Source: Acidobacteriota bacterium
GTDB taxonomy: Bacteria; Acidobacteriota; UBA6911; RPQK01; JAJDTT01
DNA: 64,000 bases
Direction: 5' to 3'
Assembly: GCA_965217775.1 (NCBI GenBank)
Contig: CBDCJH010000001.1
Location: forward strand, 1 to 64,000
Part shown: positions 20,328 through 25,166 of the stretch, in pieces
Layout: every line of letters begins with the position of its first letter
Numbering within the stretch: the stretch's first letter is position 1
Made by a program: the position numbers and the translations under genes
The notes under the pieces: model-generated
What the model saw: the letters and a program-made list of their open reading frames with translations, nothing else
What the model was told of the DNA's origin: nothing
Database searches by the model: none

Positions 20328-22535
20328 ATGCATGCCATCTCCAACATTGCATCGGCGCTCCTGACCTGGACATTGCTCCTCAGCTCCGGTCAACTGACGG
20401 CACAGGACTTCACCCAGCCTTTCAAACCCGACCCCAACACCGTCGTCCTCTATCACTTCGATGAAGGCCAGGGTGACGAGACCCGCGATGCCTGTGGTGA
20501 TCCCGAACTGACCCTGCGGGCTCACCAGGAGGCATTGCGGGGCAGCCGGGCTGGCTTCGGAGCCACGGCCCGCTTCCTCCGCCGTGAGGACGATGCCAAC
20601 GTCCTGGTCGGTCCCGTCGACAACCCCAAGCTGGAGCTTCGGGGCTGCACCCGGGAGTGGACCATCGAGGCGTGGGTCCGCCACACGGGGGGATCGGAAC
20701 AGAATGGGTACCGGAACATCTGCGGGAGCGACGATGAGGGAGTCGGACTGACCGATGGGATCCGGGGGGGATGGAATTTCTTTCTGATCGCTCCCAGGAT
20801 CGACAGGGCCTGGGTCCTCGACCGGGGGATCGGTCCCCACGCCCGGTTCTTTGGATCCTACGCCCGAGCCCCCGGCCACGACGTCAATCAGATCGGCAGG
20901 TCCAACTCTACTTTCCTCATCACCGATGATGAGTGGCACCATGTGGCGTGGCAGTTCCGGTACCAAGATCAGATGCATTTCCTGTTCCTGGACGGGAAGC
21001 TGGTTTATCGGGAAAGCCGTCCTGGGGGAAGGTCCGTGAGCAACGACGCTGCCCGGTGTGATCTTCCCTTCGTCGTAGGAGGTTTCCTCCACGCGCAGGA
21101 GGCGCCCAGCCATTTCGACCCCGCCGGCCGCATGCCGTTTCCCAACTACGGAAACTTCGAGGGGGAGATCGACGAGCTGCGCATCTCCGACATCATGCGC
21201 TACCCGGTGGCCCAGCAGCTTCGTCTGATCCACCGAGTCCTGCCCGAGGCCGGTCTGAAGCTGCCTTACTCGGCAACTTTGTCTACGGATCCGGCCCGGG
21301 GCAAGGTCAGGTGGGAGCTGGCCGGCGGCAAGCTGCCGTCGGGTCTGGTCCTGGACCGGGCGAGTGGTCTCATCCATGGCACCCCGATTGAACTCGCCAG
21401 CGAAGCACGGCTTACGATTCGGGCAAGCGATGAGATTGGCCACAGTGACCAGCACCTGTTCACGCTCTCGGTGCGTCCGGGCCACATCACCACCGAGTCG
21501 CTCCCTCTGGCCTTGACAGGGCATTCTTATCGGCATCGTCTGGAGTCGGCGTATATGAGGACGCCGGTGAGGTGGAGGATCCGAAGGGACACTCTGCCCG
21601 AAGGGCTCGGGTTCGACAGGGCCAGCGGTGTGTTTTCGGGCACGCCTACGTCGGTGATCCGGACCCCTTTGACATTCGAGGCAGTGGATGGGCTCGGTGC
21701 TGTAGACACACAGGAGCTGATCTTCCGGGTGGTACCGGAAGCACTGCGACAGATTGCGCCGGATAAACACACCGTAGCCCTCTGGAACTGGCAGGGTCCC
21801 GGAAGCAGGCGCGTCGCCGACCTCAGGGGCGACGAGGAGCTGGCGCCGACCTGGATCAATCTGAAGGGCGAAACACGGATACCCCGGCCAAACTGGGGCC
21901 GGTATCCATACTTCATCGGCGGCGGCGAAGGAGGCTTCGTCGGACCCCGGAACAACGAGAAGCTGGACCTCAGGACCTGCAAGAGGGCCTGGACCGTTGA
22001 GGCCTGGGTCCGGCCAGGTGGACCCGTCGACGGTTATGGCCGCAAAGTCGACTTCGGACACATCTGTGGGACCTACGACAACAGCGAGCCCGGTGTCTGG
22101 GAGTTCTACCTTTCGAACCACAACTCACCCAACGGCAGCTTTTCGCCTGGGGTGCACTTTCTGGGCGCGGAGCCCGAACAATCTCTCAAGGATCTGCACC
22201 CCTGGTCCCGGCCCGAGGGCATCGTGGCCGACCCCAAGGAGGTGGGCATCCAGGACACCCGCTGGCACCACGTCGCCTGGCAATACAGTTACGTGGAAGA
22301 CCTCCATCAGCTCTTCCTGGACGGCCGGCTCATCTGGCAGATGAAGAGCCCCAATGGGCGCAACCTCGTCAACAATCGCCGCCACAATGCCCAGTTCAGC
22401 GTCGGGTCTCGTCTCACCGGCTATGCCCGCCTTGGCGGCAATTTCAACTGGTTGGGCAAGGGCAACTTCTTCGGTCAGATCGGGGAGATAAGGATCTCCG
22501 ATGTCCGCCGCTATGGCGGCGAGGCGGAAGACTGA
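20328..22535 (+). CDS. Secreted protein: LamG-like domain, putative Ig (He_PIG) repeats, second LamG-like domain
   Basis: Signal peptide; TVVLYHFDEG, WTIEAWV, WHHVAW, GEIDELRISD twice; LPSGLVLD..SGLIHGTP and LPEGLGFD..SGVFSGTP. Confidence 0.8.
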   Translation: MHAISNIASALLTWTLLLSSGQLTAQDFTQPFKPDPNTVVLYHFDEGQGDETRDACGDPELTLRAHQEALRGSRAGFGATARFLRREDDANVLVGPVDNPKLELRGCTREWTIEAWVRHTGGSEQNGYRNICGSDDEGVGLTDGIRGGWNFFLIAPRIDRAWVLDRGIGPHARFFGSYARAPGHDVNQIGRSNSTFLITDDEWHHVAWQFRYQDQMHFLFLDGKLVYRESRPGGRSVSNDAARCDLPFVVGGFLHAQEAPSHFDPAGRMPFPNYGNFEGEIDELRISDIMRYPVAQQLRLIHRVLPEAGLKLPYSATLSTDPARGKVRWELAGGKLPSGLVLDRASGLIHGTPIELASEARLTIRASDEIGHSDQHLFTLSVRPGHITTESLPLALTGHSYRHRLESAYMRTPVRWRIRRDTLPEGLGFDRASGVFSGTPTSVIRTPLTFEAVDGLGAVDTQELIFRVVPEALRQIAPDKHTVALWNWQGPGSRRVADLRGDEELAPTWINLKGETRIPRPNWGRYPYFIGGGEGGFVGPRNNEKLDLRTCKRAWTVEAWVRPGGPVDGYGRKVDFGHICGTYDNSEPGVWEFYLSNHNSPNGSFSPGVHFLGAEPEQSLKDLHPWSRPEGIVADPKEVGIQDTRWHHVAWQYSYVEDLHQLFLDGRLIWQMKSPNGRNLVNNRRHNAQFSVGSRLTGYARLGGNFNWLGKGNFFGQIGEIRISDVRRYGGEAED

Positions 22536-22574
22536 TTCAACCAGCCCAGCCAGAACTCTTTAGGTGATGAGAAA

Positions 22575-23818
22575 GGGGATTATATACGTAAGTGCCGAGA
22601 ATTCAGGCTGATGGGTTACAATTCCGACCATGAAAGGCCACGCAACTATCCAGTGCCGAGCCAAGCTGTCCAAGGGTGGAATCCGGCGGTTGGACCGGGT
22701 GAGGTCCATCCTGAATCGGCTGTACAACGCTGCACTGGAGGAACGCAGGACGGCCTGGGAATCCGAGCAACGCGGCGTGACCCTGTACGATCAGATGAAG
22801 GGGTTGACCTCCCAGAGGAAGGACGATCCGGAGGGGCTCGAGTCGGTGGCGGTCAAGGCGGAGCGTGGGATGTTGATGCGGTTGGACCGGGCCTTCAAGG
22901 CGTTCTTCCGTCGCTGCAAGGCGGGGGAGAAGCCGGGGTATCCTCGATTCCGGCCCATTGCGAGGATGGAGACCATCGACGTCGTCGACCCCAAAGCGAC
23001 CCTGGTGAAGAAGCGCGCTCGGGGCTACGCCATCCAGCCCAAGGGCTTCCCGACGATCCGGATATTTCCGTCCCGGCCGTTGCCGGACGGATGCCCGTTG
23101 AAGGCGTTGCGGATCGTCCGCAAGCCGAACCGGGTGTATGTGGACCTGACGTACGAGGTGGAGAAGCCGCCGCTACCGAAATGCGAGTCTTCGGTAGGGA
23201 TCGACCTGGGCGTCCGCAAGCGAGCGGTGCTGTCCACGGGTGAGAGGATCGAACGGAATAGACGGGACTGGGCGGGGATCCGAAAGCAGCAGAGAAAGGT
23301 CTCCAGGTGCACGAAGACTTCCAAGACCAGACGGAAGCGGATCCTACATCTATCTCGGCTCCGTCAGCGGGAAGCGGTCCGAAACCGTAATGCCTGCCAT
23401 CGTCTCTCCACCAGGATCATTCGTGAGCACGGTCTGATCGCTGTGGAGAAGCTGAACATCCAAGGGATGGTAACGAAGGGCTCGAAGAAGAAGGGGCTGA
23501 ATCGAGAAATAATGACGCAATCATGGGGGCTTCTGCGGAATCAACTCCAGTACAAGGCAGAATGGGCCGGTCGGGAGTTCGTAGAAGTGAATCCCGCATA
23601 TACATCGCAGGACTGCCACCGGTGCGGCGCCCGCCACGATCCAGGGCGGAGAGAAACCTTCCGGTGCAGGGCCTGCGGACTTGGAATGGACAGGGACCAC
23701 AATGCCGCCCTGAACATTCTCAGGGCTGGGGTTCTTGCCCTGGGCACCGGAACGTATCTCGTTGGGGAAAGCGTGGTGCCAGAACTGTATGCCAAGGGCA
23801 CTTAGGTATATAAGCCCC
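22575..23818 (+). mobile_element. Non-autonomous TIR/TSD-bounded element carrying only tnpB (IS1595-like ends)
   Basis: TIRs GGGGATTATATACGTAAGTGCC (22575-22596) and GGCACTTAGGTATATAAGCCCC (23797-23818), 20/22; ATGAGAAA duplicated at 22567-22574 and 23819-23826. Confidence 0.9.
22630..23805 (+). CDS. tnpB: RNA-guided endonuclease TnpB
   Basis: YNAALEERR, PGYPRFR, RuvC VGIDLG / IAVEKL / DRDHNAALNI, Zn finger CHRC...CRAC, VNPAYTSQ. Confidence 0.95.
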   Translation: MKGHATIQCRAKLSKGGIRRLDRVRSILNRLYNAALEERRTAWESEQRGVTLYDQMKGLTSQRKDDPEGLESVAVKAERGMLMRLDRAFKAFFRRCKAGEKPGYPRFRPIARMETIDVVDPKATLVKKRARGYAIQPKGFPTIRIFPSRPLPDGCPLKALRIVRKPNRVYVDLTYEVEKPPLPKCESSVGIDLGVRKRAVLSTGERIERNRRDWAGIRKQQRKVSRCTKTSKTRRKRILHLSRLRQREAVRNRNACHRLSTRIIREHGLIAVEKLNIQGMVTKGSKKKGLNREIMTQSWGLLRNQLQYKAEWAGREFVEVNPAYTSQDCHRCGARHDPGRRETFRCRACGLGMDRDHNAALNILRAGVLALGTGTYLVGESVVPELYAKGT

Positions 23819-23873
23819 ATGAGAAACCTGGGTTGATCGCGTTTCGACGCGAGATTCGAACAGAGGATCGACT

Positions 23874-25166
23874 ATGCCAAGAACGAGCCTATTGGTTTTC
23901 GGGTTGGCTTGCCTGGTGCTCACCCTGGCGGTGGCAGCGCAAGAGGCACGCCCGGCACCAGAAAGCGAAGCGTGGGAGCGGCAGGCCCAAGCCTACTTGA
24001 AAAGTATTCTGTACCCGCGGGAGCAGGTGGAGGACTGGATCTCGGGCAGGGCAACGCTGGGTGAATCCTACGACAGCCAACTGGGGTGGCTGTTTGCCGA
24101 CAGACGGGTCAAACACGGGGTCGATGGATCGATATCGACCTATCGGTACGCGGGCGCCCGCCGAACCATCATGTACGGCGGCAACCCTTGCCGGATCAAC
24201 ACCTACGGAAACAGTTTCACTCACTGCGACCAGGTCAGTGACGGCGAAACCTGGCAGGAAGTGCTCGCCGCCCACCTGTGTGAACCTCTGCGCAACTTCG
24301 GAGTCGGGGGGTACTCCGTCTACCAGGCCTACCTGAGAATGCTGCGGGAGGAAACTCGTACCCCCGCCCGGTACATCATCTTCAACATCTACGACGACGA
24401 TCACTATCGAAACCTGCATGGCTGGCGCAACATTCGATTGGGCTATACGACCGGGATGTGGCCGGCCGTGCTCGGCTCCACCATGCCCTACGTCGTTGTG
24501 AATCCCGCAACCAAGCAATTTACCGAGTTCAAAAACCCCTGTCCTACTCCCGAATCGGTTCGTAACCTCAGCGACCCCGACTGGGTGTTCGAGCGATTCA
24601 AGGACGACTTCGTGCTGAAGATCGTGCTGGCCCAAAGGGATCCAGGGACGAGCTCCCCCCAGCCGAGCTACGACGTGATTGAGGAGCTGGCTCGGGAACA
24701 CGGCCTCCGGATCAGCATCGGGACTCCGGAAGAGCTGAAACGAACCGCAGAGGAGCTTTACACCAGAGCCGCGCTGTTCGCCACCATGAGGATCGTCGAG
24801 AAGATCGAGCACTTTGCATCGGCTCAGGGAAAACAAGTCCTCTTCGTGCTCTCCTATGGGCAACGGAACGCAGCGCAGGTGCTGAAAACAGGGGAACGTT
24901 TCGACCAGAGCCTGCTTGATTTTCTAGAAGAGAAGAGGCTGCCTTATGTCGATCTGATGGAAGCGCACAGGAGGGATTTTGCCCAGTTCAACCTGACTGT
25001 GGACGAGTACATCAGGCGTTATTGGATCGGCCACTACAATCCCCGGGGCAACTTTTTTCAGGCATTTGCCATCAAGGACAAGTTGGTCGAGCTGCTCGAC
25101 CCGAAGCCCATCAGCTACTCCACCGATCCATCGACGTACATCGAAATGAAGCCCAACAGGCCCTAA
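23874..25166 (+). CDS. Secreted SGNH-hydrolase-like protein
   Basis: Signal peptide; YGNSFT, NFGVGGYSVYQ, GHYNPRGN. Confidence 0.65.
   Translation: MPRTSLLVFGLACLVLTLAVAAQEARPAPESEAWERQAQAYLKSILYPREQVEDWISGRATLGESYDSQLGWLFADRRVKHGVDGSISTYRYAGARRTIMYGGNPCRINTYGNSFTHCDQVSDGETWQEVLAAHLCEPLRNFGVGGYSVYQAYLRMLREETRTPARYIIFNIYDDDHYRNLHGWRNIRLGYTTGMWPAVLGSTMPYVVVNPATKQFTEFKNPCPTPESVRNLSDPDWVFERFKDDFVLKIVLAQRDPGTSSPQPSYDVIEELAREHGLRISIGTPEELKRTAEELYTRAALFATMRIVEKIEHFASAQGKQVLFVLSYGQRNAAQVLKTGERFDQSLLDFLEEKRLPYVDLMEAHRRDFAQFNLTVDEYIRRYWIGHYNPRGNFFQAFAIKDKLVELLDPKPISYSTDPSTYIEMKPNRP

Follow-up and report, generated by a model that had tools for sequence, protein, structure and literature searches.

How can an RNA-guided nuclease of the TnpB type tell a vacant target site from its own insertion, despite the target duplication that the transposon carrying it has made? 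This question is raised by a tnpB cassette in the genome of an Acidobacteriota bacterium (GCA_965217775.1), which was analysed within the first 64,000 nucleotides of contig CBDCJH010000001.1 (forward strand; hereafter the window, whose numbering is used unless another contig is named). Current thinking ties TnpB to transposons that excise without leaving a scar, such as IS605 and IS607, and regards DDE elements as poor partners, on the grounds that a break already remains after their excision and that the guide is constrained by duplications (PMC13565253). The preliminary description of this DNA had proposed that the guide RNA of the cassette runs through the right terminal inverted repeat (TIR), so that the target-site duplication (TSD) would form the seed. 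The best explanation for the locus and its relatives, which we regard as probable when taken as a whole, is that the cassette is an IS1595-type element moved in trans, with an RNA scaffold that would extend through the right TIR, a guide that would begin in the TSD, and a G|A step at the insertion sites that would be the footprint of a target-adjacent motif (TAM).

The cassette and its target-site duplication

The cassette is 1244 bp long (22575-23818) and lies in a short intergenic gap between two genes of the + strand. Its single long open reading frame (ORF) is tnpB, which is located on the + strand (22630-23805), encodes 391 amino acids and has its stop codon within the right TIR. The ends are 22-nt inverted repeats that are 91% complementary; the left one (22575-22596, + strand) begins with GGGG and the right one occupies 23797-23818 (+ strand). 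Both flanks carry identical 8 bp, at 22567-22574 and at 23819-23826, and the left copy is preceded by a conserved G at 22566. A natural empty allele is present in the same genome at about position 5,280,832 of the larger contig (C2), where the 8 bp occur once and where 1 kb to either side shares about 97% identity with the flanks of the filled allele. The empty allele settles the boundaries of the cassette and the 8-bp duplication. The form in which the empty site had been reconstructed beforehand is correct, but the split TGAT|GAG that was drawn into it is one possible register, which the sequence leaves unfixed. The right flank at 23819-23838 reads as previously quoted, and the right junction of the filled allele reads ...CCCC|AT, in agreement with the CCAT given earlier.

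The assembly of the source genome comprises a 144-kb contig and a 6.29-Mb contig and has a G+C content of 62%. The smaller one (C1, 144,268 bp), to which the window belongs, is collinear with positions 5.15-5.30 Mb of C2 at 92-97% identity, and the contamination of the genome is estimated at 7.47%. C1 is probably a co-assembled strain-variant haplotig and not a separate replicon. As a probable strain variant of C2, it brings the filled and the empty allele of the window insertion together in one assembly. The empty allele (C2 about 5,280,825-5,280,840, L019; the counterpart of 22567-22576) differs from the filled one at three of the first 10 would-be target bases, compared with about 3% divergence over the surrounding 2 kb. 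These differences could have arisen by chance in an AT-rich spacer or by escape from targeting.

At least 12 near-identical copies of the cassette (93-98% identity) are present in the source genome, in addition to diverged and truncated ones, and 10 copies retain the full 391-amino-acid frame without a stop codon. A TSD of their own, 8 bp in length, was found at 10 of the 11 copies examined, the exception being L005; the twelfth copy (L007) also has a duplication matching at 8/8 positions. A genome-wide search for pairs of ends yielded 18 pairs, with a duplication of 8/8 in 15, of 7/8 in one and none in two. L005 (C2:1186780-1188023) as well as L039 and L043 from related genomes are full-length elements whose two flanks have no duplication in common, which suggests recombination between copies located at different sites. 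Two further copies are rearranged. A 1406-bp copy (C2:4647309-4648714, L012/L015) contains an insertion of about 160 bp (162 bp) near element position 1060, which splits the tnpB match. A 466-bp copy (C2:4150407-4150872, L183) is internally deleted, keeps both ends and the whole RNA module, and occupies the same site as the full-length copy L043 of the related genome; judged by this architecture, it is a candidate for a nuclease-less guide-RNA element.

An IS1595-type element without a transposase

Insertion sequences (IS) of the IS1595 family have 8-bp duplications, ends beginning with GG and a transposase with a zinc finger plus a domain named DDE_Tnp_IS1595 (PMC8101967). The domain (PF12762) has nine matches in the source genome. 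Among the resident elements is a 1762-bp IS with five copies or more. An identical transposase is encoded by four of them; it has an N-terminal zinc finger, scores 177 bits against NF033547 (cut-off 75) and also exceeds the cut-off of PF12762. This IS makes 8-bp duplications, too, and its perfect 26-nt ends agree with the left end of the cassette at 24 of 26 positions. The cassette thus has the 8-bp duplication, inverted ends starting with GG and ends in common with a transposase-encoding element of the same genome; by these sequence features it is a transposase-less IS1595-type element. By contrast, IS200/IS605 elements have neither inverted ends nor duplications and are inserted next to a TAM by the Y1 transposase TnpA (PMC13565253). 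The inverted ends and 8-bp duplications set the cassette apart from this group, to which solo tnpB elements of the IS1341 type belong and which is marked by subterminal hairpins and by insertion 3' of a fixed tetra- or pentanucleotide. Within the IS1595 family, the ends may tentatively be assigned to the ISNwi1 subgroup according to the ISfinder end consensus.

From the shared ends, the equal length of the duplications and the multiple recent copies at 93-98% identity, it is probable that the transposase of the resident 1762-bp IS mobilises the cassette in trans. In one copy of this IS (L024:696-2457, corresponding to C2:445385-447146), about 700 bp lie beyond the 334-amino-acid transposase ORF and contain small ORFs of 104 and 127 amino acids on the transposase strand.

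The TnpB protein and its relatives

The protein passes the cut-offs of both PF01385 (OrfB_IS605) and PF07282 (Cas12f1-like_TNB). With the NCBIfam model guided_TnpB (NF040570) it reaches 219 bits at a cut-off of 100, and with IS200_TnpB (NF038281) 169 bits, which is below the cut-off of 425 bits; the IS607-specific cut-off is likewise not reached. The closest natural protein of solved structure is the ISDra2 TnpB (E = 4e-32 over residues 26-375), and the catalytic residues D192, E273 and D356 are invariant across seven aligned relatives. The TnpB is therefore ISDra2-like and, judged by its residues, catalytically intact. Moreover, the ratio of nonsynonymous to synonymous substitution rates of tnpB is 0.13-0.25 between subfamilies, from which it follows that selection maintains TnpB inside these cassettes.

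Four other Acidobacteriota metagenome-assembled genomes (MAGs) from the same genus contain TnpBs with 69-95% identity. Among genomes of the family, six of 15 have this clade, all belonging to this one genus, as do three of 401 sampled genomes of the phylum; the searches of family and phylum added one new insertion site (L158). The relatives form at least six end-subfamilies, between which the inner part of the repeat differs, while it matches between the two ends of each element. A scan of metagenomes retrieved 22 relatives, of which two were informative. One of them (L131), with a TnpB that is 52% identical, has a 46-nt repeat of the same type. The other (L141, identical to L047) derives from a SAR202 MAG and carries a 45%-identical TnpB at L141:1081-2462 in a 1382-bp element, whose inverted repeat of 17 nt is perfect but unrelated and whose duplication measures 7 bp. 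Since its ends are unrelated, the TnpB lineage rides more than one kind of TIR element. Among relatives with 33-41% identity on viral contigs, none of 67 loci with two flanks showed ends matching at 16/18 positions or better together with a duplication of at least 7/8, in a scan that recovered just one of three positive controls and therefore carries little weight.

A predicted scaffold that runs through the right repeat

One conserved RNA fold fits the last 125 nt or so of 15 elements from seven end-subfamilies. Two alignments were used: A1 covers the terminal 225 nt or so of 14 elements, and A3, to which L131 belongs, the terminal 125 nt of 15. The predicted core of the omegaRNA scaffold lies at 23694-23818 on the + strand (131.9 bits with the covariance model R1), and a start at 23650 may add one stem at the 5' side. 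Stem a is a hairpin (23721-23742, + strand) in which 23721-23726 pair with 23737-23742; all cells of the alignment are paired (100%) and three of six pairs have changed on both sides. Stem b (23743-23780, + strand; 23743-23748 with 23775-23780) contains an inner helix of 3 bp and a hairpin (23757-23760 with 23765-23768). Among the 15 sequences, both sides have changed in four of the six pairs of stem b and in three of the four pairs of its hairpin. Stem c (23786-23812, + strand; 23786-23791 with 23807-23812) joins sequence upstream of the repeat to the TATATA part of the right TIR and encloses the subfamily-specific inner repeat, with 96% of the cells paired and one compensatory pair. RNAalifold recovers stems a, b and c on its own. 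In addition, the loop of stem a (23728-23733) would form a pseudoknot with the last 6 nt of the right TIR (23813-23818), about 90 nt away, and three of these six pairs show changes on both sides.

In A1, pairing holds for 98.9% of the cells and changes on both sides are seen in 11 of 25 pairs, values of which none was reached in 500 shuffles; partners slid by 1-3 columns pair in 32-48% of the cells, a comparison that is inflated because the structure was derived from the same, kindred sequences. In A3, the paired cells amount to 98.6%, and compensatory changes occur at 14 of 31 pairs. The pseudoknot is supported by individual lineages. In subfamily E (L040 and, from another genome, L158), two changes at the tip of the repeat are accompanied by matching changes in the loop, and in L131 a U-A pair has turned into A-U. 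In the SAR202 element, the loop of an analogous stem 128 nt upstream contains 7 nt that are perfectly complementary to element positions -8 to -2, a match for which about 0.007 occurrences are expected per register. Furthermore, in most of the TnpB subfamilies the right repeat differs from the left one at the fifth base, which converts a U-U mismatch into a G-U pair of the pseudoknot, whereas the autonomous IS is symmetric at this base. These observations support a scaffold that, as predicted from covariation, overlaps the 3' end of tnpB and runs through the right TIR to the last base of the element, in line with the guide RNA proposed in the preliminary description. A repeat within the scaffold, the feature that marks Fanzor-type RNAs, is part of this predicted structure, in which stem c and the pseudoknot use 23807-23818.

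The covariance model has 16 matches in the genome, each located at a tnpB 3' end, be it of a copy or of a fragment; there is no free-standing omegaRNA element among them, and one is the internally deleted 466-bp copy. A scan of 22450-23950 for sigma-70 promoters and terminators returned nothing useful on the + strand. A 17-nt inverted repeat (23651-23667 with 23744-23760) was considered as a further stem and rejected, as it competes with stem b and lies outside the RNAalifold consensus.

The conservation at the 3' end might also result from coding and transposase-binding constraints in a decaying or repurposed passenger that takes no guide from the flank. Indeed, the structured region overlaps the coding sequence as well as the repeat, the evidence for the RNA or its activity is not direct, and some copies are broken by the 162-bp insertion or by the internal deletion to 466 bp. 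However, the compensatory double changes preserve pairs while altering codons (14/31 pairs; 0/500 shuffles), and the hairpins are found at the right end and not at the left. Together with the purifying selection on tnpB, the intact catalytic residues and the 10 full-length frames in the genome, this makes the passenger explanation very improbable.

The register of the guide

In ISDra2, the pseudoknot at positions -6 to -2 is followed by an unpaired A at -1 and then by the 16-nt guide (PMC10097598). By analogy, the scaffold would end at 23818, or at 23819 if the invariant A at this position is counted. This geometry, combined with a scaffold that reaches the end of the element, would place the start of the guide at TSD position 1 or 2, and at position 4 at most. 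The right copy of the TSD (23819-23826) would then form the start of the guide, with its first position (A) possibly serving as the last scaffold nucleotide, and the unique flank at 23827-23838 (+ strand) would supply the rest of a guide of about 16 nt, a length that is taken from ISDra2. Thus, the first base of an ISDra2-type guide would lie at the start of the duplicated 8 bp or just within them, as had been anticipated when the TSD was first proposed as the seed. The register assumed at that time, with a guide from TSD position 3 and a TAM ending in G-A-T, is one of the allowed options.

In a different register, modelled on Fanzor, the whole 8-bp duplication would belong to the scaffold, the guide would begin at 23827 and the left copy of the duplication would act as the TAM. 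For Fanzor, the 5' TSD is described as part of the TAM (PMC13565253), and of 23 sites of the present family, all have W (A or T) at TSD position 7 and 14 have A at position 6. Against this register stand the freely varying TSD positions 4, 5 and 8, which cannot form a TAM read by the protein or a fixed segment of the scaffold. With a TAM of 4-5 nt lying wholly within the duplication, the right junction of the filled allele would offer that motif as well, and the element would cut itself. Moreover, the strongest constraint, a G at -1, lies outside the duplication. The Fanzor-like register is accordingly quite improbable, and a guide that begins near the first base of the TSD is preferred here.

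A directional motif at the tnpB-upstream junction

If the TnpB depends on a TAM, its requirement might be visible in the insertion sites. The flanks were compared at 25 independent insertion sites from six genomes, which were oriented by tnpB; 34 pooled half-sites from 17 insertions of autonomous IS1595 elements served as the control. L005, L039, L043 and L131 have no matching duplication, are probably recombinants between copies and were left out of the count. The clearest signals adjoin the junction upstream of tnpB. Position -1 is G in 24/25 sites, compared with 11/25 on the mirror side and 11/34 in the IS1595 half-sites, and TSD position 1 is A in 24/25 (mirror side 8/25; IS1595 half-sites 15/34). 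TSD position 3 is A in 17/25 sites, as opposed to 3/25 on the mirror side and 14/34 in the control. Further upstream, the corresponding counts are 15/25, 5/25 and 8/34 for G at -2, and 13/25, 5/25 and 4/34 for A at -5. TSD position 2 is W on all sides (25/25 in the tnpB-upstream flanks, 25/25 on the mirror side and 33/34 in the IS1595 half-sites), which identifies it as a preference of the transposase itself. Within the duplication, the constraint is confined to positions 1-3, and positions 4, 5 and 8 vary freely. The sequence logo over left flanks and TSDs, which the preliminary description had called for, thus yields G|A-W-(A/W) as the motif common to the sites. The two flanks of L005, which was not counted, each fit the G|A or A-start pattern when taken alone.

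When both junctions of a cassette are scored together, 18 sites have G|A solely on the left, none solely on the right, five on both sides and two on neither (sign test, 7.6e-6). At the sites of the autonomous IS, the same classes contain four, three, one and nine. A two-fold symmetric transpososome should ignore the direction of its cargo; a signal that depends on orientation and sits at the junction upstream of tnpB is the trace to be expected from a TAM. The orientation-specific G|A therefore points to a TAM-like constraint, as read from the insertion sites, and it bears out the earlier supposition that insertions lie next to a TAM-like motif. The resemblance then seen between TGAT and the TTGAT TAM of ISDra2 is not upheld, because it rests on a T at -2, which most sites lack (G in 15/25).

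It could also be that RNA and nuclease act as described, and that the G|A bias stems from the transposition machinery or from another kind of selection at the left junction, for instance on the expression of tnpB. The IS1595 transposase prefers W-rich ends of the duplication flanked by S (G or C). Furthermore, the control is limited to 17 autonomous sites, and the cassettes are related to each other, even though each site is a separate event. However, the mirror half of the same 25 sites has no such bias (11/25 and 8/25), and at the autonomous sites a G|A on the left only is about as frequent as on the right only (four versus three). Asymmetric ends do not explain the bias either, since subfamilies D and E, in which the outer 13 nt or more agree between the two ends, keep it at all of their six sites. 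Finally, the left junction has no predicted promoter of the sigma-70 type. An origin of the bias other than a TAM is thus unlikely, and the TAM-like constraint is retained for the model outlined below.

A model for targeting and self-avoidance

In the proposed mechanism, the TATATA part of the right TIR would form a stem with upstream sequence, and the last 6 nt of the element would form the pseudoknot with the loop of the upstream hairpin. Transcription would continue past the right end into the flank, and the guide would consist of the remaining duplication and the unique flank, with the duplicated bases as the TAM-proximal seed. TnpB would recognise, and presumably cleave, empty alleles in which a left flank ending in G is followed by A-W-W and then by the target. 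The filled allele would be spared at both junctions. At the right junction, the C of the repeat stands in place of the near-invariant G of the empty sites. The left junction matches the would-be guide for exactly 8 nt, which is the upper end of the 6-8 nt estimated before. TnpB needs a seed of about 12 nt, so a match of 8 nt would be too short. Discrimination between self and non-self despite the duplication, which had been regarded as conceivable from the outset, is therefore plausible.

The G|A footprint would reflect this need for a TAM, either because only insertions next to it give a working pair of nuclease and guide or because only such insertions persist. The invariant A at TSD position 1 may have a dual role, being the last base of the TAM in the left copy and the scaffold nucleotide at -1 in the right copy. 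More tentatively, and with somewhat less than even confidence, it may be proposed that in this bacterial TnpB lineage the pseudoknot and the tip of a DDE (IS1595/Merlin-type) end have evolved together, with the seed drawn from a long variable duplication; G|A would then be the population-level footprint of TnpB homing into empty alleles or killing the products of precise excision. In a bolder variant, TnpB bound to the motif would help to choose the site or the orientation of insertion.

Read-through into the flank can be compared with RNA libraries. Six runs labelled as RNA contain part of the stretch, and four of them, from two studies, were examined. Their contigs go from tnpB through the right TIR and continue for 50, 67, 46 and 17 nt into flanks, where they stop. 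These flanks are those of other copies, two being matched to L006 and L032 and one being unmatched. The contigs across the right end are weakly consistent with read-through. Over the window's own flanks, RNA-library cover is absent beyond 23857, which carries no weight, as the samples may lack this insertion. In two size-fractionated runs, contigs of 31-44 nt with high depth (50-220) pile up at 23533-23582. This segment encodes the most conserved peptide of the family, and the depth of the contigs may be summed over subfamilies.

Several points weigh against the proposed mechanism. The RNA evidence consists of contigs, which show neither ends nor strand and may contain DNA, and one contig of low depth crosses the left junction as well. 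The pseudoknot's three terminal G-C pairs are invariant and the last base is unpaired in the SAR202 element, so that the pairing of this base, and hence the start of the guide at TSD position 1 or 2, is not fixed. Rfam has no match at E values up to 10 over 22300-24200, and the minimum free energy fold of 23650-23838 as a single sequence (z = -2.5) departs from the consensus structure. As to the TAM, strongly constrained positions are few (-1, 1 and 3, and more weakly -2 and -5) and do not add up to a clean motif of 4-5 nt in any single register; the preference of the transposase mentioned above explains part of the signal at positions 1-3. Moreover, excision of DDE elements already leaves a break, which makes the benefit of TnpB to such an element unclear (Kojima 2026, PMC13565253).

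Comparison with known systems

That TnpB occurs in DDE transposons, and that Fanzor RNAs include TIR and TSD, is already published. According to Altae-Tran et al. (2023, PNAS, PMC10691335), inverted terminal repeats are present in all six DDE-associated groups of TnpB, and no more than 250 bp separate the 3' end of TnpB from the end of the transposon. The same study describes solo TnpBs whose ends are near-identical to those of transposase-bearing elements, implying mobilisation in trans; the ends of the present cassette stand in this very relation to the 1762-bp IS. IS1595 does not occur in the main text of that paper and appears in one supplement just as a search profile; its Additional Files 10 and 11, which show the ends, may bear on this comparison. 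In the passages considered here, the relation of a long, variable duplication to guide and TAM is not addressed. The review by Kojima (2026, PMC13565253) names ISL2, IS630 and IS1031 as the DDE partners of TnpB and argues that DDE elements gain little from OMEGA systems. In the literature searched, no paper links IS1595 with TnpB mechanistically. Nor did it contain a bacterial TnpB with a pseudoknot built from an IS1595 end, a long variable duplication as seed, or a directional flank motif set against transposase-only relatives.

Like other IS1595-family elements, the cassette has 8-bp duplications and ends starting with GG (PMC8101967); unlike them, it lacks a transposase, and the RNA of its cargo is predicted to be fused to one end. 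With ISDra2 it shares an omegaRNA that is predicted to lie over the 3' end of tnpB and to take its guide from the right flank. A further parallel is the pseudoknot; that of ISDra2 lies immediately before the guide and connects the last few nucleotides of the scaffold with a loop about 100 nt upstream (PMC10097598). In contrast to ISDra2, the cassette has IS1595-type ends and an 8-bp duplication, the 3' strand of the predicted pseudoknot doubles as part of the end for the transposase, and the first predicted guide bases are duplicated target. A single 22-nt sequence would thus apparently be both a transposase-binding end and part of a guide-RNA scaffold, while the guide seed would be freshly duplicated target at natural insertions with a directional motif that is absent from transposase-only relatives.

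Another parallel is found in Fanzor from eukaryotic TIR transposons, whose guide RNAs (reRNAs) include TIR and TSD, with flanking or duplicated bases in scaffold and TAM (PMC10711439, PMC13565253). Fanzor1 and Fanzor2* likewise have the inverted repeat in the scaffold, as well as non-autonomous cassettes that carry the nuclease alone. Fanzor1, however, has no pseudoknot and keeps the TSD in the scaffold, whereas the predicted pseudoknot of the Acidobacteriota MAGs, in bacterial hosts, is retained and built from the tip of the repeat. Another difference is that the 8-bp duplication is variable here, so that at most its first 1-3 bases could be scaffold or TAM. The A with the putative dual role resembles the right-flanking nucleotide of IS607 TnpBs and the Fanzor TSD (PMC10711439). 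With a compact nuclease of 391 amino acids and a predicted scaffold of about 125-170 nt, the family offers a hypothesis for the TAM, natural filled and empty alleles and six or more variants of end and pseudoknot. It is therefore a testable bacterial case for what the nuclease does for a DDE transposon. If the more tentative reading of a co-evolved pseudoknot is true, these cassettes would be a prokaryotic counterpart of the Fanzor solution, with the pseudoknot kept, in elements that are not expected to need a nuclease.

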